Positions 5,143-41,423 of a stretch of DNA of 64,000 nt are shown one piece after another. The notes under the pieces were generated by a model. That model saw only the letters and a list, made by a program, of their open reading frames with translations. It ran no database searches and was not told the origin of the DNA. Position 1 is the stretch's first letter, and every line of letters begins with the position of its first letter. Source of the DNA: Patescibacteria group bacterium (lineage in GTDB: Bacteria > Patescibacteriota > Minisyncoccia > Phycocordibacterales > PALSA-1337); assembly GCA_018971685.1 (NCBI GenBank), contig JAGXAG010000001.1, positions 19,162 through 83,161 of the forward strand, in the 5' to 3' direction. The position numbers and the translations under genes are program-made.

Positions 5143-6291
5143 ATGACAAAAATTAGTGAGAAAAATGAGCCTGAAAAGCTCACCGAGGATACTTCGATTC
5201 CGTACCGAAATGAGCAGGCCAAAAGACGCTTCTTCGAGCACCTTTCTGGCGGTGAAGGGTTCGCCGGTGAGTCGGTTTCAACCTTTGCCGAGGCTGTCGG
5301 CCAATGGCAGCAGTTCTCCAAAAATGATGACTTTGTTAATTTCGATAGAAGTAAGGCAACGGAGTTCGTGGCTTGGCAGAAAACGCGTCCGACCAAAGCC
5401 AAAGGCGGAAAGCTCGCATTGCAGACGCAATATAATTATCTTCGCCGCATCAAGCGATTCTTTATGTGGCTTGCGGAGCAGAAAGATTACAAGAAAATTA
5501 AGAAGGATGACATCGATTATCTGCGCCTGCCAAGAAAAGAGGCTCGAATGGCCACTGCCGGCACGACCAGAGTGATGCCGACGTTCGAGGAAGTGAAGCG
5601 GATCATAATGAGTATCCATCCGAAGAATGAAATCGATGAGCGTGATCGCGCCATATTGAGCTTAGCTTTGATAACTGGCATGCGCATATCGGCCATAGCA
5701 ACCTTGAAGATGAAGAACTTCAACCGAGCAGATAAGCTCTTTGATCAGAACCCAGGCGATGGCGTGTTGACCAAGAACTCAAAGAAAATCCTGACCACGT
5801 TCTTTCCGATCGGCTGGGATGAGCCGGAGCGATTCTTTCTCGACTGGTATGACCACTTGGTATCAAAAGGAGCAAAGCCAGATAGCCCGATATTTCCATC
5901 GACTCTCAAAGGATTTTCGGGCAAGAATGATTACAGCAAGACTCTTGTAAGCGATGAGAGCTGGGCCAGCTCGAGCGGTGCCAGGAAGATATTTGAGAAG
6001 CGATGTAAGGCTGCCGGTGTAACTTACTTCAATCCGCATTCGTTCCGGCATCTCATCGTAAACTATATGAGCAAGGCCAGATTGACTGAGGAAGAAAAGA
6101 AAGCCATCAGTATGAACCTCGGACATGAGAATGTCGGCACAACATTCGGTTCCTATGGTTACGGAAATATGACACCCATTGATGCCGTTCATATCGTGCA
6201 GAAGCTAACGATGACTCCGACCAACGGCCAGAGCGTCATTATTACTCCCGAGGAAAAAGCTGCACTCGAGAAATTATTGAAACGTCTATGA
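5143..6291 (+). CDS. int: tyrosine site-specific recombinase / integrase
   Basis: Catalytic-domain motifs: R in GMRISA, HSFRH, LGHENVGTTFGSYGY (catalytic Tyr). Adjacent to a tRNA gene. Confidence 0.8.
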   Translation: MTKISEKNEPEKLTEDTSIPYRNEQAKRRFFEHLSGGEGFAGESVSTFAEAVGQWQQFSKNDDFVNFDRSKATEFVAWQKTRPTKAKGGKLALQTQYNYLRRIKRFFMWLAEQKDYKKIKKDDIDYLRLPRKEARMATAGTTRVMPTFEEVKRIIMSIHPKNEIDERDRAILSLALITGMRISAIATLKMKNFNRADKLFDQNPGDGVLTKNSKKILTTFFPIGWDEPERFFLDWYDHLVSKGAKPDSPIFPSTLKGFSGKNDYSKTLVSDESWASSSGARKIFEKRCKAAGVTYFNPHSFRHLIVNYMSKARLTEEEKKAISMNLGHENVGTTFGSYGYGNMTPIDAVHIVQKLTMTPTNGQSVIITPEEKAALEKLLKRL

Positions 6292-6337
6292 AGAAAATCA
6301 GCTTGGCTTCCATGCCAAATAAGCACATAATATCAAC

Positions 6338-7963
6338 ATGAAGAACGCCAAGGAAACGCCAGTCAAATACTTCCTGTATGCCAGGAAATCGACCGAATCA
6401 GAAGACCGGCAGGTGCTTTCGATTGAGTCGCAAATCGACGAGCTGAAAGCTATCGCTGACCGAGAGAACATAAAAATTATCGAAGTGCTCCACGAATCGC
6501 GGTCCGCTAAGGCTCTTGGCCGACCAGTATTCAACGATATGATTGACCGCATCAATCGTGGAGAGGCTACCGGCATCCTATGCTGGAAGCTCGATCGCCT
6601 GGCTCGTAATTTCATTGACGCGGGCAAGGTCATCGAGATGTTGCAGCACAGCGTCATTCGGCACATCCGAAGCTATGAAAAAAGCTACTATCCGCAAGAT
6701 AACGTGCTCATGATGAGCCTCGAGTTCGGCGTGGCCAACCAATTCTCCCGCGACCTTGCGGTGAATGTGAACCGAGGCATGAAGAAAAAGGCCGAAATGG
6801 GCTGGTATCCGGTCCAACCACCAATCGGCTATCTGAACAGTAAGAATAAGGGCAAAGGCAAGAACGACATCTCAAAAGACACCGAGCGATACGACATCGT
6901 GCGAAAAGTCTTTGATCTTATGTTGACTGGCACGATGTCAGCTCATCAAGTCTGGCTGACTGCTACGGAAAAATATGGACTGCGAACACGGAAAGATAAG
7001 CTGATTTGCCGCAGCTCGATTTACTACGTGCTGACCAATCCTTTTTACTACGGCATGTTTGAGTGGCCACGAGGAAGCGGGACGTGGTATCGAGGAGCGC
7101 ATGAACCGATGATTACTGAAGAAGAATACGATCGCATTCAGATATTGCTCGGCAGAAAGGGCAAGCCTCGCCCAAAGAGTCACATCTTCGACTTCACCGG
7201 CATGTTTCGATGTGGAGAGTGCGGCGGCGTCATCACGGCAGAGGAGAAGATAAAGCGACCAAAGAACGGAAACGTGCATCGCTACATTTATTATCACTGC
7301 ACAAAGCGTGTCCATCCCGACTGCACGCAAGGCTCTATTGAAGTGACGGAGCTGAAGAAGCAGATCATCAAAAAGATTGAATCCTTGGAGATTCCTCCAG
7401 AGTTCCACACCTATGCCTTAAAATGGTTCAGGAAGAAGAACGAAAAGGACGTTGAGACGAATACAACGATTCTATCCGCGCAACAGAAGGCCTACGATGC
7501 CTGCGTACGAAAAATCGGCGCATTGATTGATATGCGTGCCACCAACGAGATTACATCCGAGGAGTTCGCCGATAGGAAGACATACCTCGTAAAGGAAAAG
7601 AGTCGACTTGAAGAGCTCCTGAACGATACCGGCGATCGCGTCAATAAACAACTTCAGAACGCCGATGATCTATTCACGTTCCTGCGCGATGTTGTCGAAA
7701 AGTTCAATACCAAAGGTTTTGAGACCAGAAGACGCATACTTTCGACACTTGGTCAGAACCTTTTGCTAAAGGACAAAATACTAAGCATTGACTGGGAGAA
7801 ATCGCTGTTGCCATCACAAAAGCTCGCCGGTGAAGTGAAGAAAATCCACGAACGGTTAGAACCTACAAAAAACAAGATGTCACAAGGAGATTTGGAAGAA
7901 ATCTACTCCAAAAATCCAATAGTGTGCGCCCAGTTGGAGTCGAACCAACGACCCACTCCTTAA
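6338..7963 (+). CDS. large serine recombinase (resolvase domain, recombinase domain and zinc ribbon)
   Basis: N-terminal YARKSTESEDRQVLSIESQ with catalytic Ser. CGECGG...YYHC zinc ribbon. Coiled-coil C-terminus. The last ~13 codons overlap tRNA-Lys. Confidence 0.8.
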   Translation: MKNAKETPVKYFLYARKSTESEDRQVLSIESQIDELKAIADRENIKIIEVLHESRSAKALGRPVFNDMIDRINRGEATGILCWKLDRLARNFIDAGKVIEMLQHSVIRHIRSYEKSYYPQDNVLMMSLEFGVANQFSRDLAVNVNRGMKKKAEMGWYPVQPPIGYLNSKNKGKGKNDISKDTERYDIVRKVFDLMLTGTMSAHQVWLTATEKYGLRTRKDKLICRSSIYYVLTNPFYYGMFEWPRGSGTWYRGAHEPMITEEEYDRIQILLGRKGKPRPKSHIFDFTGMFRCGECGGVITAEEKIKRPKNGNVHRYIYYHCTKRVHPDCTQGSIEVTELKKQIIKKIESLEIPPEFHTYALKWFRKKNEKDVETNTTILSAQQKAYDACVRKIGALIDMRATNEITSEEFADRKTYLVKEKSRLEELLNDTGDRVNKQLQNADDLFTFLRDVVEKFNTKGFETRRRILSTLGQNLLLKDKILSIDWEKSLLPSQKLAGEVKKIHERLEPTKNKMSQGDLEEIYSKNPIVCAQLESNQRPTP

Positions 7964-22985: not shown

Positions 22986-24344
22986 TCAATTAGAAGACAC
23001 CAAATCAAGCGACCATAATGACAGGTCGTTTTTGTTCATGAAGAACAAGTATTGATCATTTTCGTCCAACTGCAGATTAAAAGCGTCGATTATGGCGTTG
23101 CCTTGGTTGAGCAGATCGGCGACCTGGCGGACTTGGCCGGTATCGGCGTCGAGGAGCCAAATGCTGTCAATGAATGAATTCTGGCCGAGGTACCAACTGT
23201 CCGGATATGTGCCGGCCGGTATTTGCGAAGATACGCCGCAATAAACCTGTTCTTTGAATACCGCCGACCAAACACATTTGTCAGCCAGTGTCCGGAATAT
23301 GGTTGGTGCCGACTTGCCGCTCTTTATGTCATAAACGGCGGTAGTGATCTTGTTATTGCCGTCATAACTCGAATACAACACTTTGGTGGCGTCTTTGCTT
23401 ACTCTGGTGGCCAGCCCCTTGATATCTCCCATAATTTGTTTGACGACACCGGTCTTTACATTCACGAAATATAAATAGCCCGAATAATAGGCGCTGGCCT
23501 TAGTGGTTACGGCAATAGTGTTGGCTTCTGGCCATTCAACGGTCAATTGAGTAAAAGGCAGGCTGAATAATTGGGTTTGTTTTGACCCGTCAAAATTGGA
23601 GATATAGCCGACGGCACTGTCGTTTTCATCGGTCACCACCAATATTTTGTCTCGTTTTGGCGAAGCGGCGACAGCCAAAATGTCGCCCGAGACGATCTTA
23701 CCTTTTAATTCATAAGGAGTTTCGGTTATGTCAGGCAATTGGGCCGTTGAATTTAATGCCATCGAAGATGAGGCGGTTGAAGATGCGTTTGCTGAAGCTG
23801 CGGTTGGCAAATTCACGGTCGGCTTCGGCAGTGCCCTTTTCAAAACATTTGCGATCACCGTAGTTACCTGGTCGCTGTTATCTCCCAGGTATTGCCCCAC
23901 GAATGTGGTGTCGTCTTTGTTCCACCAGCTTTGGTAAACGCGCGGCAGTAGTGTATTCGAAATAGTGGTAATGTCGAGCGAATCGCCCCGCGCCTCGTAA
24001 ATATTCCCTCTCCCTCTATCTATCCACCTGACTACGGTTGTGCTGGCCGTGGTGCTGGCGGCATATCCTCCCACCGGCGTGGCGCTCAATTGCCTGATCA
24101 CCGGCAAAGGCACGCCGGCATTGCTCGTTGTTGTTGTCGTCCCGTTATTTTGACCACCATTTTCATTTTGCCCTGAATTATTTGCCGGCAGAGCGCGGTT
24201 GAAAGGCACGAATCCGTTCTGAATCTGGTTTGGCGCCGCTGTTATCGACGGTCGCGCTGTCTGGCGGATGAAGAAATACCATAAAGCGCTCAAAACAACA
24301 ATTATGATTATTACTGTGACGATTATGTTTACGGTTTTTTTCAT
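22986..24344 (-). CDS. secreted/membrane-anchored hypothetical protein (N-terminal TM, Thr/Asn-rich linker, probable beta-rich domain); last gene of the T4SS-like operon
   Basis: MKKTVNIIVTVIIIIVVLSALWYFF TM. Start overlaps the upstream gene stop (24341-24344). Confidence 0.5.
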   Translation of the reverse strand: MKKTVNIIVTVIIIIVVLSALWYFFIRQTARPSITAAPNQIQNGFVPFNRALPANNSGQNENGGQNNGTTTTTSNAGVPLPVIRQLSATPVGGYAASTTASTTVVRWIDRGRGNIYEARGDSLDITTISNTLLPRVYQSWWNKDDTTFVGQYLGDNSDQVTTVIANVLKRALPKPTVNLPTAASANASSTASSSMALNSTAQLPDITETPYELKGKIVSGDILAVAASPKRDKILVVTDENDSAVGYISNFDGSKQTQLFSLPFTQLTVEWPEANTIAVTTKASAYYSGYLYFVNVKTGVVKQIMGDIKGLATRVSKDATKVLYSSYDGNNKITTAVYDIKSGKSAPTIFRTLADKCVWSAVFKEQVYCGVSSQIPAGTYPDSWYLGQNSFIDSIWLLDADTGQVRQVADLLNQGNAIIDAFNLQLDENDQYLFFMNKNDLSLWSLDLVSSN

Positions 24345-25615
24345 TTGCCTGAAGAAAATTTTTGGCTAAACGAACTGTTTACTTTGAGCAGTTCGTCTTC
24401 CAAGTTCTGTTTTAATACTGGATCCTGGATGTCTTTTATCGATGTTTGTATTTTATTAAGCTCATCAACCGTAGTCGACTTGAAATCAGTAATTGTAAAA
24501 TAGTCTTGTCCTACCCAAACCCGAGATTGCGCTAATCCAAAAAACTGTGGATCTATGGTCGCACTGTTTATTTTAATTGATTCTCCCTGTAGCTTAAGCA
24601 TAAGCTGATCGGCGTTGGCGTTATCGTTTATACCACCGGGTTTACTTATAGAGTCATATTCTCCCAATTGCGTCAGCTGTGCATTTCGAGTATCTCTTTG
24701 TTGGTCTATAAAGTTTATACCATTGTTAATTTGCTCATCTATACTTTTTGCCGAGATCGAATTATCCAGATTTTGTGCGTTTATATTTTGAATTGTATTC
24801 GAAATACCGCCGTTACTCATGATTGATTTTCCAGTCAAAACGATCATATTTGCTTGTGCGTCGTTTATCTTTTTGTCGATTTGAGCCATCTGCACCTCTG
24901 ACGGTAAGGTGTCTATCTTACTTTGTAGATCTGTTTTCTCTTGAAGTAATTGGTTTACCGTATTTTTGGCTTGCTGAGCTTGGTCTACATATTCTTGTCC
25001 AACGGCATTATATTTTTGTGCCTCCGCATTTAACTGATCAAATAATGTTAGCGGTGACTCCTGTTGTGTAGCTGGGACAGATATGGGCGGTATGCTGGCG
25101 GGAATTGCGACGAGTTTGGGATTGACGGTCTTCAGGATGAGATAAGAGCCGAGGACCATTAGTAATCCCCAAATGGCGTTCCAGAATTTGTCTTTGCCGG
25201 CACTCTTCTTATTCCACGCGTCCGAAGTCATATATTCAAACCCGCCCCAGACCATCATGAACACGGCGGCGACGGCGGATAGGGCGATCAATAGGTTGAA
25301 TGCGTAAATAAAGAAAGTACTCAAATCAACGGTTGTCTGAGGTGCGCCGGCGCCTCCGGGACAATCTACCGTCTTACTCATTCCGCCACCGCCGGGCAGA
25401 TCAACGCTGTAAGTATATGGTATGCACGGCAACGGTTCCAATAAGGTATAACTTTTTACACCGGCAGATGTTACCGTTGGTGTAGGTGTTGGAGTTGGAG
25501 TAGGCGAGTTAGATTGTGCCGCGGATATATTCAAGGTCAATAAAAACACCGAGAGTAACAAGAAAAATGTTCTGAAAAAGCGGCGATATGTTGTTTTGTG
25601 AAGATTATATGCCAT
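24341..25615 (-). CDS. pilin-like protein: signal peptide, PT repeat, Cys pair, two-helix hydrophobic hairpin (VirB2/TrbC-like topology) fused to about 300 aa of coiled coil
   Basis: Start set at MAYNLHK; the track ORF runs to 25747. Topology LSTFFIYAFNLLIALSAVAAVFMMVWGG...FWNAIWGLLMVLGSYLIL. Confidence 0.4.
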   Translation of the reverse strand: MAYNLHKTTYRRFFRTFFLLLSVFLLTLNISAAQSNSPTPTPTPTPTVTSAGVKSYTLLEPLPCIPYTYSVDLPGGGGMSKTVDCPGGAGAPQTTVDLSTFFIYAFNLLIALSAVAAVFMMVWGGFEYMTSDAWNKKSAGKDKFWNAIWGLLMVLGSYLILKTVNPKLVAIPASIPPISVPATQQESPLTLFDQLNAEAQKYNAVGQEYVDQAQQAKNTVNQLLQEKTDLQSKIDTLPSEVQMAQIDKKINDAQANMIVLTGKSIMSNGGISNTIQNINAQNLDNSISAKSIDEQINNGINFIDQQRDTRNAQLTQLGEYDSISKPGGINDNANADQLMLKLQGESIKINSATIDPQFFGLAQSRVWVGQDYFTITDFKSTTVDELNKIQTSIKDIQDPVLKQNLEDELLKVNSSFSQKFSSGK

Positions 25616-26678
25616 TGTAGTTATTAAAAGTTGTGCTAGTGGCGGTTTGAGAACCATTGTCGGAAAAGACGGCAGAGAAACCATTAGATGCGCTTTGGAG
25701 AATATCTTTGGAGTTTTCGACGCGAAGCTGTATGTTGGAAGAGCCACTTTGGCCGGCCGGCGCGCGCAGGACGATCGACTGGCTGGCGGAAAGCGCCGCT
25801 TGAGACAAGGAATTTACCATCCAAGAAAAAGATAAATCATTCGTGTTGCCGGCCAGTCCGTTGAATCCATAAGGAACCGCCAAGACTGAAAGCTCGCCGC
25901 TGGAACCCAAACCGACACTGTTCCCTATCGCTTTATTATACAACGGTCCATATAAAGGGTCGTTATTGTAAAATTGGATGAATGGACTGCCGGCTTGCAA
26001 AATAACAGTCTTTTCAGCCGAAGCAGTGCCATCGCGGGTAGTGACCTTCAGGTTAATCATTCTGGGGCGTGGCACAACCTCGTCTGTCCAGATAAAAACT
26101 TGTTTGCCATAGCCGCTTGCGGATTGGACGACTTTTGTGTCTTTGGTCCACTGATACACCAGTGTTTTCGGATCATATTCTACGCCGGATGAATTGGCGA
26201 TATGGGGAATAGCGATTACTTTGTAGGTGTTTTGATAGACCAACGGTATTTTGCCTTGGAAGAAAGGCGGCGTATAGCCGTCGCTTTCTATAATAAAATC
26301 AATACTGCCGGTAGTTACGGTGATATTCGTGCTCAAGGTTTTGCCGTCCGGCGTGGCGGCTGATACTGCCACGGCAAGCTTTTTGCCCAGGTCGGGCGCT
26401 ATCACTTGGATCGAGGTGACGCCTATGCCTTTTTGGTATGTGTTGCCGTTCAAAGTCCAAGTGATATTGGATGAATTCAAGTCCGCAATGTAACTTTCGG
26501 CCGTAATCGTCAAATTTTGCCCGGGCGTTGGGTTATCGGTTGAAAGTTTCAGGTCTATTCCTTGAATGGAAGTCGGCACGCCTTGCGCGAAGGTGAACAA
26601 GAAAGGCAACATAACAATTGTTGTCATCCCTGCGAATGCGCTGACCCAGAATTTTACCGAAAAAACCAGAGGTCTCAT
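25605..26678 (-). CDS. secreted hypothetical protein (signal peptide; Ig-like/beta-rich)
   Basis: Start set at MRPLVFSVKFW...; the track ORF runs to 26765. Ser/Thr/Asn-rich. Confidence 0.45.
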   Translation of the reverse strand: MRPLVFSVKFWVSAFAGMTTIVMLPFLFTFAQGVPTSIQGIDLKLSTDNPTPGQNLTITAESYIADLNSSNITWTLNGNTYQKGIGVTSIQVIAPDLGKKLAVAVSAATPDGKTLSTNITVTTGSIDFIIESDGYTPPFFQGKIPLVYQNTYKVIAIPHIANSSGVEYDPKTLVYQWTKDTKVVQSASGYGKQVFIWTDEVVPRPRMINLKVTTRDGTASAEKTVILQAGSPFIQFYNNDPLYGPLYNKAIGNSVGLGSSGELSVLAVPYGFNGLAGNTNDLSFSWMVNSLSQAALSASQSIVLRAPAGQSGSSNIQLRVENSKDILQSASNGFSAVFSDNGSQTATSTTFNNYNGI

Positions 26679-26733
26679 TAACAATATTGTACCAATATCG
26701 GAAAAAACTTGCGAAGTTGGTTGTGGAGAGTAT

Positions 26734-27228
26734 TCAAGTCTTAGACGCGCGCCTGATGCCGTCATTTACCAAAGGTTTGGTATTGGCGTTTCTATATGCC
26801 GAAGGGTCGTAAGTGTTTGCCGTTTGCGTAACCATCTGTGGCTGGCGCACGCCGTCCTTATAGAGTGGTTGCTGTACCGTATTTGATAACATTTCCTCCT
26901 GTTCCTTTTGCGCTTGCAGTTCCGCGTCTTCCTGCTTGACTGACCGCTGTATATACCAAATATCGACGATCCAAAAAGAAGCAATGCCGCCGGTAAGTTC
27001 TCCTATACCTGCCACCCCAACCAGCGAGATCAATCTTCCCGGTCGTTTTATCATTGACACGCCGCGAAGCTGGAAATATACGCCGATAAGCGCGCCGCAA
27101 GCCGGATCGAATATCATATTTATTACCTCGCCTATTCCGGTGAAATCAATGACATACTGTATAATGTCTATTATTCCGGTAATTCCATATAAAAACCACC
27201 ACTCCGTTTTTCCGATTTTCGATGCCAT
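26734..27228 (-). CDS. hypothetical small membrane protein
   Basis: 164 aa, 3-4 TM helices. Inside the T4SS-like operon. Confidence 0.45.
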   Translation of the reverse strand: MASKIGKTEWWFLYGITGIIDIIQYVIDFTGIGEVINMIFDPACGALIGVYFQLRGVSMIKRPGRLISLVGVAGIGELTGGIASFWIVDIWYIQRSVKQEDAELQAQKEQEEMLSNTVQQPLYKDGVRQPQMVTQTANTYDPSAYRNANTKPLVNDGIRRASKT

Positions 27229-29069: not shown

Positions 29070-29705
29070 TTATGTTATTTGTATCGGCTTCTCGGTCTCG
29101 CCGGGGTTGAATAACTTATAGAACAATTCTACCACTTCTTCCGTGCCCAATTCCGCGGTTCTGATGCCGCATCTGACCAGTCCCTGTTCGACCACTGAGA
29201 CTCTCTGTTCCAGTTGCGTGCGGTATTCATTGAACTGTTCGTCCGGGGTCGGCCCCTGGCCGCCGTTTTTCCGACCGGGCAGGAATTTTGAAACAGGGTT
29301 TTTGCTCGCGGTCATGATCGGCGGGTCATAAGGTACGACAACGAAGAAGCTCTTGGTCATAATGTTGGTGTTTTCGACGAAAGTCTTGATGAAGTCTATG
29401 TATTCGCGGACCTGGATCTTCATCAGCTCGGTAGTCTGTTCTTTGTACCGCCCTTCCAACAGGGCGATATACGGCCGTATGTCTAGCTTCTTCGATTGCA
29501 CGAATATTTGCACCGAAAAATCCAGCGAATTCAGGAAATTCTGGAACTGGAACATGATGGAATTTTGTTCATCGGCGGACTTCAGGGCGAAATTCAAGGA
29601 CGATGCCAAGACGACGGATCTCATGCCGCCGTTACGCAGGATGATCACACCGTCGCGAATTTCGCGGATTGGCACGAAGTCTTGGGTTGTTTGTGATTTG
29701 GTGGC
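29070..29705 (-). CDS. VirB4 N-terminal (CagE_TrbE_VirB) domain protein, encoded separately (split VirB4)
   Basis: Start set at MATKSQTTQDF (ATGA overlap with the PrgI-like stop); the track ORF runs to 29900. The FVPIREIRDGVIILRNGG pattern is typical of the VirB4 N-domain. Confidence 0.55.
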   Translation of the reverse strand, partial: ATKSQTTQDFVPIREIRDGVIILRNGGMRSVVLASSLNFALKSADEQNSIMFQFQNFLNSLDFSVQIFVQSKKLDIRPYIALLEGRYKEQTTELMKIQVREYIDFIKTFVENTNIMTKSFFVVVPYDPPIMTASKNPVSKFLPGRKNGGQGPTPDEQFNEYRTQLEQRVSVVEQGLVRCGIRTAELGTEEVVELFYKLFNPGETEKPIQIT

Positions 29706-29707
29706 CA

Positions 29708-30145
29708 TTATTTCTGGTTCTTGTTCGAATAAACGCTCTCTTTGATATCCAGACTCCACGCCAAGTCTTTCAATTTGCTGTCGGATATTTTCGGCACCAT
29801 TACGGAAGCGTAATTCCGGATCTCTTTTGCGGCGGCTTGGCCGCTTGCCGGCGGCTTCTTGTCTTCTTTTTTCCATATGTACAGCTTGCCCCCCCGCCAA
29901 TATTTGAACGCCGACTCGGCGACACTCAACAACGGGAAGTGGTTGTAGACTTTGTAGAAAGCGAGCGCCGCGGATACGGCCATTATTACAAGCATTGGGA
30001 TCAAAGCCAATGCCAAGTTGCCGATGATGACATAGGTTATGAATGACAAGCCTCCCCCGCCGGCCAGGTATATGAATTGCTTCAAGGTGAGCGGGCCGAA
30101 AATTTTGTCCTCTACCTCTATGAATTGGGGAACTTGGAAGCGCAT
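29708..30145 (-). CDS. PrgI/VirB3-like small T4SS membrane protein
   Basis: MRFQVPQFIEVEDKIFGPLTLKQFIYLAGGGGLSF followed by 2 TM helices. PrgI family pattern. Confidence 0.55.
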   Translation of the reverse strand: MRFQVPQFIEVEDKIFGPLTLKQFIYLAGGGGLSFITYVIIGNLALALIPMLVIMAVSAALAFYKVYNHFPLLSVAESAFKYWRGGKLYIWKKEDKKPPASGQAAAKEIRNYASVMVPKISDSKLKDLAWSLDIKESVYSNKNQK

Positions 30146-35564: not shown

Positions 35565-36623
35565 ATGGCCAAGCGCGCGCGATTTAACATACTGATAATT
35601 ATTGCGGCATGTGTTGTATTTACCGGTACGACTTACGCCTCCGGAATATTTGCGAGAAACCTGTCCATAGGCATGAGCGGCGCAGATGTCGAAAAACTGC
35701 AACAATTGCTGAATTCCGATCCTACCACAGCGGTTTCTTCTTACGGGCCCGGTTCCGCCGGCGCCGAGACTGATTATTTTGGCGCAAAAACGGCCGCGGC
35801 TGTAGCCAAATTCCAGGAAAAATACGCGCGAGATATCCTTACGCCGGCGAGATTGTCTTATGGCACCGGATATGTCGGGCCGCTGACGCGGGCAAAATTG
35901 GAGACTGTCGCCGCGAAACTGTTTCAGCCGACAGTCTCGACGGCTTCGTCAGGCCCCGCGGTGCCAGAAGCAACGGCTTACGCTGAAGCTCAAGATGTCT
36001 CGACATTGCAAAAGTCACTGGCGCGCGGTGTCATACCGCAGTGGGCAGCTTTCGCAGCTCTACATGCTGACGATTTGTTGATATTCGGACTTTCCAATGA
36101 TAAAGTAAAACCGGGCGATATACTCGTCGTTTCCGGTTTTGGCCTTGATCCCGATACGACAATTCACTTCGGCAACAAGGTTTCAACATCGGTATCAACT
36201 TCATCCGGCAACGAATTGATCGTGAAAATACCATCTATTCCCTACGGTGTGTACGATGTTTGGGTGAGCAACACGCGCGGGACAACCTTGGGTAAGACGC
36301 CGTTCAAGATAACGATTGGTGCGGTTACCGATAACAGACCTATGATTTTTTCCGTATCTCCTACACACGCGACCAGAGACGATGAAGTTACTGTGACTGC
36401 AAAAGGGCTGGATGCATCCGGCAACAATATTTACTCATCTCTTGGTATAATAAAGTCGATATCGTCCAGCGACGGCAAGACGATACGATTCAAAGTTACC
36501 GATTTGCCGAATGCTTACGGTTTTTTCAACAGCCCATCGCTCAATAAATTTACCGTAACTTTTGGAATCAGAACCGGCGACGGATTGAGTGTAAATTACG
36601 GATACTTCATCATTTCAAAATGA
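35565..36623 (+). CDS. secreted protein with peptidoglycan-binding (PG_binding_1-like) domain and beta-sandwich repeats
   Basis: GMSGADVEKLQQLLN...FGAKTAAAVAKFQEKY PG-binding motif. Signal peptide. Confidence 0.55.
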   Translation: MAKRARFNILIIIAACVVFTGTTYASGIFARNLSIGMSGADVEKLQQLLNSDPTTAVSSYGPGSAGAETDYFGAKTAAAVAKFQEKYARDILTPARLSYGTGYVGPLTRAKLETVAAKLFQPTVSTASSGPAVPEATAYAEAQDVSTLQKSLARGVIPQWAAFAALHADDLLIFGLSNDKVKPGDILVVSGFGLDPDTTIHFGNKVSTSVSTSSGNELIVKIPSIPYGVYDVWVSNTRGTTLGKTPFKITIGAVTDNRPMIFSVSPTHATRDDEVTVTAKGLDASGNNIYSSLGIIKSISSSDGKTIRFKVTDLPNAYGFFNSPSLNKFTVTFGIRTGDGLSVNYGYFIISK

Positions 36624-40289: not shown

Positions 40290-41423
40290 ATGCGATTTTC
40301 ATCAAATCCTCATAACAAAAATAAAAGTCATTTGAAGCGCCCATATTCATGGACAGCGACTTTAATCATAGCCATTACTACGCTTGTAGTTTCTTCAGGG
40401 ACCGCTTATGCCGGCCTCTTTTCTTTCCTGGCGCCACTCATCGAAGGTTCGCCGGTTTCGGCGCAAACTGTTACCGATAATAATCTGCAAAACCTTCAGA
40501 CCCTGGCTTTATTGCAAGCGGCTGTCAATACTGACCCAAACCCCAACAAGATTGCCGACGAAATACCGATCGAAAACAACAACACATTGTCTCCAAGCGT
40601 AGCTGCTTCCAATACTGGTACCGATTCCGACCAACTCAATACGCAAGTTACCAGTTACTCTGTCCAAGAGGGAGACAATCTCTCGGTTATCGCAAACATG
40701 TTCGACATCTCGGTTGATACAATCAAACAAGCTAATCATTTGATCGGCAATAATGTTCATGTCGGCCAATCACTGGTTATATTGCCTGTCTCTGGCGTTT
40801 TGTACGCTGTGAAAGCCGGTGATTCGATACAAAAAATTGCCGATAGGTACAAAGTAGACGAGAGTGATATTTACGCATACAACAATCTAACATCCTCGTC
40901 AGTCATAGTGAAAGGTCAAGAACTCATCATTCCTCACGGTAAACCTTCAGTTTCGGATGTCAATTCGTTCTTGGCTAGACAGAAAATGCATGTGCCTTCG
41001 TTTGAACCACTACTCGACCCTGTATGGAATTGGCCGTCGTACACCGATTATTGGACTTGTCCGGTACCCGGTGCACATCTATCTCAAGGTTTGCATGGGC
41101 ACAATGCTGTTGATTTAGCTATTGGCTTGAATACCCCTATACGCGCTGCCGCCGCCGGTACAGTCATTGTCAGCAAGTCTAATGGCTATTATGGACGCAG
41201 CTCTAACGGCGGTTATGGTAACTTCGTCATGATCGCTCATCCTAACGGCGCCGAAACCCTCTATGCCCACATGTCTAGACCGGCAGTTTCCGTCGGAGAG
41301 AGTGTTGCCCAGGGTGAAATCATCGGTTATATAGGTATGACCGGCATGACGACCGGACCCCATGTTCACTTTGAAATCCGCAATGCCGCCAATCCATTCG
41401 TCGACCCCGCGCTGTGTAAATGA
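40290..41423 (+). CDS. LysM-domain M23 family peptidase (cell-wall hydrolase)
   Basis: Two LysM repeats (YSVQEGDNLSVIA; YAVKAGDSIQKIA). M23 HxxxD/HxH motifs (GLHGHNAVDL; GPHVHFEI). Preceded by a 264-nt structured leader. Confidence 0.8.
   Translation: MRFSSNPHNKNKSHLKRPYSWTATLIIAITTLVVSSGTAYAGLFSFLAPLIEGSPVSAQTVTDNNLQNLQTLALLQAAVNTDPNPNKIADEIPIENNNTLSPSVAASNTGTDSDQLNTQVTSYSVQEGDNLSVIANMFDISVDTIKQANHLIGNNVHVGQSLVILPVSGVLYAVKAGDSIQKIADRYKVDESDIYAYNNLTSSSVIVKGQELIIPHGKPSVSDVNSFLARQKMHVPSFEPLLDPVWNWPSYTDYWTCPVPGAHLSQGLHGHNAVDLAIGLNTPIRAAAAGTVIVSKSNGYYGRSSNGGYGNFVMIAHPNGAETLYAHMSRPAVSVGESVAQGEIIGYIGMTGMTTGPHVHFEIRNAANPFVDPALCK

Follow-up and report, generated by a model that had tools for sequence, protein, structure and literature searches.

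We identified a long-form pilin gene of a type IV secretion system (T4SS) in a 64,000-nucleotide (nt) stretch of contig JAGXAG010000001.1 (Patescibacteria group bacterium, assembly GCA_018971685.1), which is referred to as the window throughout. The open reading frame (ORF) lies on the minus strand at positions 24341–25615 and encodes 424 amino acids (aa), as the first-pass annotation of this DNA had correctly placed and oriented it. Its product is a pilin-type subunit (Pfam family PF18895, 'VirB2-like') and the only one found in a conserved chromosomal, oriC-proximal T4SS operon of Paceibacteria-type Patescibacteria. The mean pairwise identity within the family is 62% in its transmembrane (TM) hairpin, 47% in the extracellular motif that precedes the hairpin (the ecto-motif), and 17% in the C-terminal tail. 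With somewhat more confidence than doubt, we read the protein as a pilin-type assembly module that displays a hypervariable extracellular contact domain, on a pilus or on a shorter stalk, together with the products of the flanking genes g386 (upstream) and g452 (downstream).

Assignment to the T4SS pilin family

The target protein matched the PF18895 (T4SS_pilin) profile with 22.2 bits (E = 1.5e-4), aa 105–155 aligning to profile positions 12–62 of 71, and the same profile was matched by all 56 aligned homologues (25–43% identical to the target) at E < 0.01 (best 3.4e-10). Similarity to a T4SS pilin family was thus present throughout the alignment. The match of the target would also satisfy the independent E-value (i-E < 0.001) and coverage (>50%) by which VirB2-like pilins were counted in a published survey (Quinonero-Coronel et al. 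2025, PMC12102498). A database search returned at least 196 related clusters from Paceibacterota, Taylorbacteria, and other Parcubacteria, most of them 380–430 aa long; most of the 120 relatives listed carry a precomputed PF18895 match, and several are labelled 'pilin' by NCBI. With 424 aa and a C-terminal domain of 250 aa, the target is not a small protein that consists essentially of the hairpin. When the pilin domain only was searched against a word-indexed database, five matches were returned, a yield held down by the limit of the index, and short orthologues were among them.

The genomic setting is that of a secretion system. The gene is one of eleven in a minus-strand operon (35490 to 22986) that adjoins yidC, dnaA, and dnaN, and it lies three genes downstream of virB4. 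The T4SS-like system proposed in the first-pass annotation was confirmed by PrgI, a TrsD-like N-terminal VirB4 fragment, and a VirB4 ATPase, all encoded in the same operon as the pilin (Table 1). Chromosomal, dnaA-proximal, relaxase-less T4SSs of Patescibacteria with TrsD, PrgI, and 'VirB2-like pilins' detected by PF18895 have already been described (PMC12102498).

A 100% identical protein is deposited as MBU6426660.1 under the name 'DUF308 domain-containing protein [Patescibacteria group bacterium]', a label based on a sub-threshold match of the hairpin (17 bits, cut-off 25). Proteins of the HdeD type usually contain several hairpin repeats in tandem. That the hairpin is an ordinary double-pass anchor of an unrelated, DUF308/HdeD-like family, placed in the T4SS operon by chance, is what the PF03729 (DUF308) match behind this name would suggest (E = 0.0073, a single hairpin), and hydrophobic hairpins do yield weak cross-matches to many families. 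We consider this very unlikely. DUF308 did not reach its cut-off in the target and was detected at E ≤ 1 in 13 of the 56 homologues, as against 56 of 56 for PF18895; unlike a passive anchor, the hairpin is conserved more strongly than any other part of the protein and contains invariant Gly, Tyr, and Pro residues; and the position of the gene in the operon is fixed in 45 genomes. 'T4SS pilin-domain protein' is therefore a more informative label than DUF308, which misleads.

Domain architecture of the long-form pilin

The signal peptide, the Pro/Thr linker, the cysteine pair, and the two-helix hairpin with a Lys-rich turn that had been proposed were all confirmed in the sequence. An AlphaFold2 (AF2) model of the pilin, built on the 56-sequence alignment, had a mean predicted local distance difference test score (pLDDT) of 83.8. 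The signal-peptide-like segment has a basic n-region (K7, R11, R12, R15) and a hydrophobic core (aa 17–28) and ends in SAA before a Gln, the cleavage site probably lying after SAA. It leads into the Pro/Thr linker, of which SPTPTPTPTPTV occupies aa 37–48, and from there into the ecto-motif, in which Y56, L59, L62, and P63 are invariant among the homologues and for which AF2 predicted strands at aa 55–63, 67–72, 78–83, and 92–97. The pilin contains exactly two cysteines, C64 and C85, which homologues keep or lose jointly. The two helices of the hairpin were evident both as Kyte-Doolittle hydropathy peaks (aa 96–127 and 146–165) and as AF2 helices (aa 98–130 and 134–164), and the turn between them bears K136, K137, K141, and K143. 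Invariant residues of the hairpin region are I110, G124, G125, Y128, G150, L151, and P166. The first half of the subsequent Pro-rich linker is also conserved, with the consensus DPRLVxIPxTLVPPL. The lysines in the turn, the paired cysteines of the ecto-domain, and the even cysteine counts of the tail (0, 2, or 4 in 54 of the 56 homologues, often bracketing loops) fit an N-out/C-out orientation with an extracytoplasmic tail, and we infer that the mature protein has the topology of a VirB2/TraA propilin, with the Lys-rich turn in the cytoplasm.

The C-terminal extension (aa 176–424) measures about 250 aa, fewer than the ~300 aa first proposed, and its folded helical part comprises ~236 aa; tail length ranges from 232 to 296 aa in all 56 aligned homologues. 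AF2 predicted helices at aa 189–234, 240–283, 289–316, 329–351, 375–393, and 399–423, which are 19–46 residues long and separated by five breaks at Pro/Gly, and pLDDT exceeded 90 over most of aa 190–420. The tail had been described as one long coiled coil, which the analysis did not bear out: the model contains six folded-back helices and a small beta-hairpin, and in a crude heptad scan only aa 207–247 rose above the 95th percentile of shuffled sequences. The model points to an elongated antiparallel helical bundle, which would be roughly 65–70 Å long since its longest helices have 44–46 residues. The reported richness in Gln and Asn holds for the target, whose tail contains 21% Q+N, but is not a trait of the family, in which the mean is only 16% (range 10–27%).

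The aromatic/Gly beta-hairpin (aa 352–374) would sit at the membrane-distal tip of the bundle. The region around it (aa 346–378, positions 24482–24580) is the most variable part of the protein, being 4–57 aa long in the homologues and containing recurrent aromatic-Gly motifs (FFGL, WFGL, WYGLHG, WYLPG). About 6 of the 56 homologues carry a ~50-aa Gly/Ala-rich hydrophobic insert at this place, with a maximum 15-residue hydropathy of 1.4–1.9. A search of PDB sequences with the family profile gave only marginal coiled-coil noise (E ≥ 0.005), Foldseek against PDB returned no match at E ≤ 1e-3, and no Pfam family consistently covered the tail across the 56 aligned members.

In gross form the tail resembles the VirB5/TraC minor pilin that caps the pili of diderms, as both are T4SS-associated, elongated helical bundles outside the cell with a small non-helical appendage. 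A VirB2–VirB5 fusion, in which the tail would be homologous to VirB5/TraC, is nevertheless hardly credible and essentially refuted at the sequence level: alignment of the tail profile to five VirB5 proteins with hhalign gave P = 0.28 over 8 columns, cross-controls were equally null, and no VirB5-type Pfam match was found in any of the 56 members. VirB5 is moreover a separate soluble protein that is not fused to a membrane hairpin.

Conservation across patescibacterial loci

Homologues in candidate phyla radiation (CPR) genomes were sought with one genome per species, which yielded 45 species-level loci, all from Patescibacteria. Each of the 45 contains exactly one pilin-domain ORF of about 360–530 aa stop-to-stop, and none has another pilin within 6 kb. 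A tail could be detected in 43; of the other two loci, L038 is truncated at the end of its contig, and in L045 the tail has diverged beyond detection. Wherever the contig extends far enough, the genes follow the order g256–PrgI–TrsD–VirB4–g164–g386–pilin–g452 (loci with VirB4, n = 41; with g386, n = 46; with g452, n = 45), yidC lying on the opposite strand, and the pilin gene is three genes downstream of virB4 in all 41 loci that include virB4. Within the window itself, neither a second PF18895-like ORF nor a free tail was found.

Across loci L001–L047, identity is 85–93% for VirB4 (41 loci), 60–82% for YidC, 38–68% for g452, and 28–55% for the pilin. The VirB4 ATPase is thus far better conserved than the housekeeping insertase YidC of the same loci. 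A search with the tail only against 1.84 billion representatives recovered only 22 proteins, and in all of them the tail was C-terminal in a pilin-type protein of about 300–430 aa, which marks it as a lineage-restricted, fast-evolving accretion. In the cultured Ca. Yanofskyibacterium, transcript signal is on record for a PF18895 gene of 1230 nt, which precedes a gene of 1323 nt (PMC10936435 supplement). Because this cultured Paceibacterium has such a gene, an experimental system exists.

Tail-less orthologues and a g386–pilin fusion

Two metagenomic contigs, L057 and L058, encode tail-less orthologues between the orthologues of g386 and g452, namely P0131 (179 aa; L057 1831–2370) and P0130 (204 aa; L058 1926–2540). 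An assembly artefact as their origin was rejected, as the region contains no gap or Ns and the next gene follows 17–22 nt after the pilin stop. A third tail-less relative, P0133 (124 aa), stops directly after the second helix; its contig (1152 bp) does not reach far enough to reveal the operon slot. In a neighbour-joining tree of g452 (no bootstrap), the short-pilin locus L057 had a long-form locus as its sister and fell within a set of long-form lineages, which suggests that the tail was lost in L057. Since the tail-less orthologues occupy the same slot as the long form, the hairpin is the functional core and the tail is dispensable.

The short forms also bear on an alternative in which cleavage in the conserved Pro-rich linker removes the tail, either as a pro-domain or as a secreted protein that acts separately, to leave a short mature pilin. 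They show that a short form is sufficient as a pilin, the conserved DPRLVxIPxTLVPPL lies exactly at the junction, and the low AF2 confidence there suggests a flexible, accessible linker; the C-terminal processing of the RP4 TrbC and Ti VirB2 propilins provides an analogy. However, none of the genes of the conserved operon was recognised as a dedicated peptidase, the tail was never found as a stand-alone gene, and its retention as a well-folded, roughly 250-aa domain in 56 of 56 aligned homologues speaks for an independent function. We regard removal of the tail as quite improbable.

One genome encodes a natural fusion in the same operon slot (L056 8001–10199): P0060 (732 aa) joins a g386 orthologue with three immunoglobulin-like (Ig) domains to a long pilin. 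A frameshift artefact is unlikely, because none of the three frames at the junction encodes the signal-peptide core of the pilin. This fusion, which dispenses with the pilin signal peptide, hints that g386 and the pilin cooperate on the outer face of the membrane.

Putative role of the long-form pilin

A pilin-type module that displays the tail would be exported by Sec and, after cleavage of its signal peptide, inserted N-out/C-out with the Lys-rich turn in the cytoplasm. On a platform of VirB4, PrgI, and a VirB6-like protein, the ecto-motif and the hairpin would then assemble either into a VirB2-like pilus or into a stalk that is shorter and spans the wall, and the helical-bundle tail would be displayed on the outside of this assembly. 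There the tail, with its hypervariable aromatic/Gly-rich distal hairpin, could present a variable surface for contact with, or adhesion to, the host cell, acting jointly with the upstream triple-Ig g386 and the downstream anchored g452. A single conserved pilin seems in this way to outsource surface variation to an appended domain, unlike in Saccharimonadia, where arrays of divergent short pilins supply it. In the lattices of F/T pili, about five subunits account for a 13 Å rise in a tube of about 85 Å, and a rough geometric argument suggests that a radially projecting four-helix bundle may be sterically possible on an F/T-like lattice.

Several observations weigh against such a role. The PF18895 score of the target (22.2 bits) is below the gathering threshold of the family (26.6). 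Of the VirB2/TrbC pilin named in the first-pass annotation, the two-helix topology, the T4SS_pilin module, and the T4SS operon stood, whereas membership in PF04956 (TrbC/VirB2) did not, since its match to the target was not significant (E = 0.73). Among the 56 homologues PF04956 reached E ≤ 1 in 11 (best 6.4e-4), which is no more than for the unrelated hairpin families DctQ (19) and DUF308 (13). Alignment of the N-terminal profile to eight authentic plasmid VirB2/TrbC proteins with hhalign placed hairpin on hairpin at P = 0.14; both profiles are shallow, so that a distant relationship may have been missed. The link to VirB2 is therefore one of topology, genomic context, and the Pfam name. Profile searches of PDB sequences and searches with Pfam and Foldseek revealed no recognisable adhesin or receptor-binding fold in the tail, and the tail-less orthologues show that the tail is not essential to the machine. 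An appendage of 28 kDa per subunit, with ~350 aa more in the g386 fusion, has to our knowledge no precedent among VirB2-type pilins and might not be compatible with helical packing. A pilus or filament is yet to be demonstrated in a patescibacterial T4SS; the literature treats one as a possibility (PMC12857230).

Some of the same evidence would be accommodated by a subunit that does not polymerise, its hairpin being docked in the VirB6-like/PrgI/VirB4 platform while the bundle, g386, and g452 form a fixed wall-spanning strut or cap. The pilin gene is present once per operon; its start codon (ATG 25615) overlaps the stop of g386 by 11 nt and its TGA overlaps the start of g452 (ATGA), so that the three genes appear to be translationally coupled, which suggests a fixed stoichiometry. 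The g386–pilin fusion would place large domains on both ends of the hairpin, homology to VirB2 is not significant, and T4SSs of monoderms normally lack pili (PMC12102498). Yet the hairpin module also exists as free proteins of 124–204 aa, which is typical of pilins, its PF18895 relatives in Saccharibacteria are essential multi-gene pilin arrays (PMC10633639, PMC12102498), and the divergence of the tail (17% identity) would be unusual for a fixed internal strut when compared with VirB4 (about 90%). We consider a strut doubtful, though a serious contender.

The display module that we favour also has a bolder version, which we think rather unlikely: a monoderm would build a VirB2-type filament or stalk whose subunits each carry a four-helix-bundle arm, and the distal hairpin, in some lineages the 50-aa Gly/Ala-rich form, engages or inserts into the envelope of the host. 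If such a decorated filament existed, the pilin would be at once conduit, adhesin, and host-specificity determinant. It would represent a class of 'decorated' conjugative-type pilus that has not been seen before and would give a handle on how epibionts choose and tap their hosts.

Gene boundaries, operon, and neighbouring genes

The stop-to-stop frame of the pilin ORF extends upstream to a GTG at 25747, which was rejected as the start because homologues begin at the methionine of MAY(K/N); the ATG at 25615 was taken as the start because homologues start with MAYK or MAYN. The operon begins with genes for a 306-aa anchored protein, a 557-aa secreted protein, a 635-aa polytopic protein, and a 256-aa soluble protein (g256), all on the minus strand like the genes for PrgI, the TrsD-like protein, VirB4, the 164-aa g164, g386, the pilin, and g452 that follow in this order. 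The 635-aa polytopic protein had no Pfam or NCBIfam match and is VirB6-like by position and topology only. The mechanically called ORF of the TrsD-like gene (29070–29900) overlaps the PrgI gene; translation probably begins at the ATG at 29708, which coincides exactly with the stop of PrgI. This gene also matches the N-terminal parts of VirB4 models and is annotated as PF26593 (TraC-like) in homologous loci. g386 had no match in Pfam or NCBIfam, is conserved (46–70% identity, >250 relatives), and is predicted with high confidence to consist of a signal peptide and three tandem Ig/fibronectin type III (FN3)-like beta-sandwich domains.

Table 1 Features of the long-form pilin gene, its product, and the T4SS operon (window coordinates)
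Feature	Positions	Strand	Properties
Long-form T4SS pilin gene	24341..25615	-	424 aa + stop
Sec-type signal peptide, aa 1–33	25517..25615	-	Hydropathy; AF2 helix 6–30, then disordered; pattern common to homologues
Pro/Thr linker, aa 36–48 (SPTPTPTPTPTV)	25472..25510	-	Disordered, not conserved; pLDDT <50 at residues 33–51
Extracellular ecto-motif YTLLEPLPC and Cys64...Cys85 loop	25325..25456	-	Small four-stranded sheet predicted, aa 54–97
Pilin-type TM helical hairpin, aa 98–165	25121..25324	-	PF18895 region; Lys-rich turn
Pro-rich linker, aa 166–188 (NPKLVAIPASIPPISVP...)	25052..25120	-	pLDDT 57–69
Extracellular helical-bundle domain (predicted), aa 189–424	24344..25051	-	Six helices; hypervariable sequence
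Aromatic/Gly beta-hairpin, aa 352–374 (DPQFFGLAQSRVWVGQDYFTIT)	24494..24562	-	Strands 352–355, 365–369, 371–374 (AF2)
Polytopic membrane protein, 635 aa	30984..32891	-	≥6 TM segments (hydropathy); charged C-terminal tail; conserved position
PrgI/VirB3-like two-TM protein, 145 aa	29708..30145	-	PF12666 PrgI, E = 1.8e-11
TrsD-like protein (separate N-terminal VirB4 domain), 212 aa from internal ATG	29070..29708	-	NF041427 TrsD, E = 5.7e-7
VirB4-like T4SS ATPase, 604 aa	27252..29066	-	NF045971 conju_CD1110, 371 bits (cut-off 325); PF19044, E = 2.4e-24
g164, small membrane-associated protein between virB4 and g386	26734..27228	-	Detected in 27 loci
g386, secreted or anchored protein	25605..26765	-	Maximal ORF; NCBI start 26612
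g452, N-terminal membrane anchor and large domain	22986..24344	-	After the pilin in 45/47 loci

Neither a coupling protein nor a relaxase was found among the large ORFs scanned in the window, which comprised housekeeping genes and two recombinases. The latter are a tyrosine integrase (PF00589; 5143–6291, plus strand) and, beside it, a large serine recombinase (Resolvase, Recombinase, and Zn ribbon; 6338–7963, plus strand), both located among housekeeping genes; the pair (5143–7963) may represent a small integrated element. A secreted protein with PG_binding_1 and TIG domains (35565–36623, plus strand) is encoded divergently from the T4SS operon, and a LysM and M23 peptidase protein (40290–41423, plus strand) is encoded 5 kb away. 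Both are candidate wall-remodelling (VirB1-like) partners.

Comparison with known systems and implications

The pilin shares its hairpin module and Sec signal peptide with known PF18895 pilins of Patescibacteria, such as those of the Ca. Southlakia epibionticum array and those surveyed by Quinonero-Coronel et al. 2025 (PMC12102498), as well as a location beside virB4, PrgI, and TrsD in a chromosomal, often dnaA-proximal, relaxase-less T4SS and a surface of variable sequence. The array of Ca. S. epibionticum is essential. Pilins described so far are small and are frequently encoded in arrays of 2–11 divergent paralogues, whereas the pilin described here is single-copy, has 424 aa, and combines a conserved hairpin (62%) with variability in an appended, roughly 250-aa helical bundle. 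Like VirB2/TrbC/TraA of diderms (PF04956), it has a signal peptide, two hydrophobic helices with a short basic turn, a predicted N-out/C-out topology, and a place in a VirB4-containing operon; unlike these, it belongs to a monoderm, and similarity to them was not significant, as set out above. VirB2-type pilins have about 70–120 aa, some being trimmed or cyclised at the C-terminus, and we know of none that carries a folded C-terminal domain. The combination of a conserved polymerisation module with a variable surface domain recurs in the FimH/PapG two-domain tip adhesins of the chaperone-usher pathway and in flagellins with D2/D3 domains. This is a functional analogy only, as folds and assembly pathways are unrelated; in addition, the adhesin is there a minor subunit beside a major pilin, whereas no second pilin was found in the operon here.

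Neither the system nor the Pfam family nor the genomic position is new; the long-tailed form, although widespread, is apparently undescribed. No paper that mentions a C-terminal domain on PF18895 pilins was found in the literature that could be searched, which agrees with the initial statement that this is not a described architecture. The novelty is tempered by how common the form is (at least 196 clusters), by the name 'pilin' that some members carry at NCBI, and by the survey thresholds that it would pass.

The T4SS of Patescibacteria is essential for epibiotic life in the one genetically tested species, and pilins are the main reason why reviewers suspect a pilus in a monoderm. Surveys that count 'VirB2-like pilins' pool two very different architectures, and the finding presented here corrects a misleading database name (DUF308). 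If the only pilin found in the operon of many Paceibacteria has 400 aa and bears a surface domain that is folded and hypervariable, models of this T4SS must accommodate the tail. Should this hold true, the tail would be an obvious candidate for host recognition and a target for antibodies, host-envelope pull-downs, and population-genetic scans.

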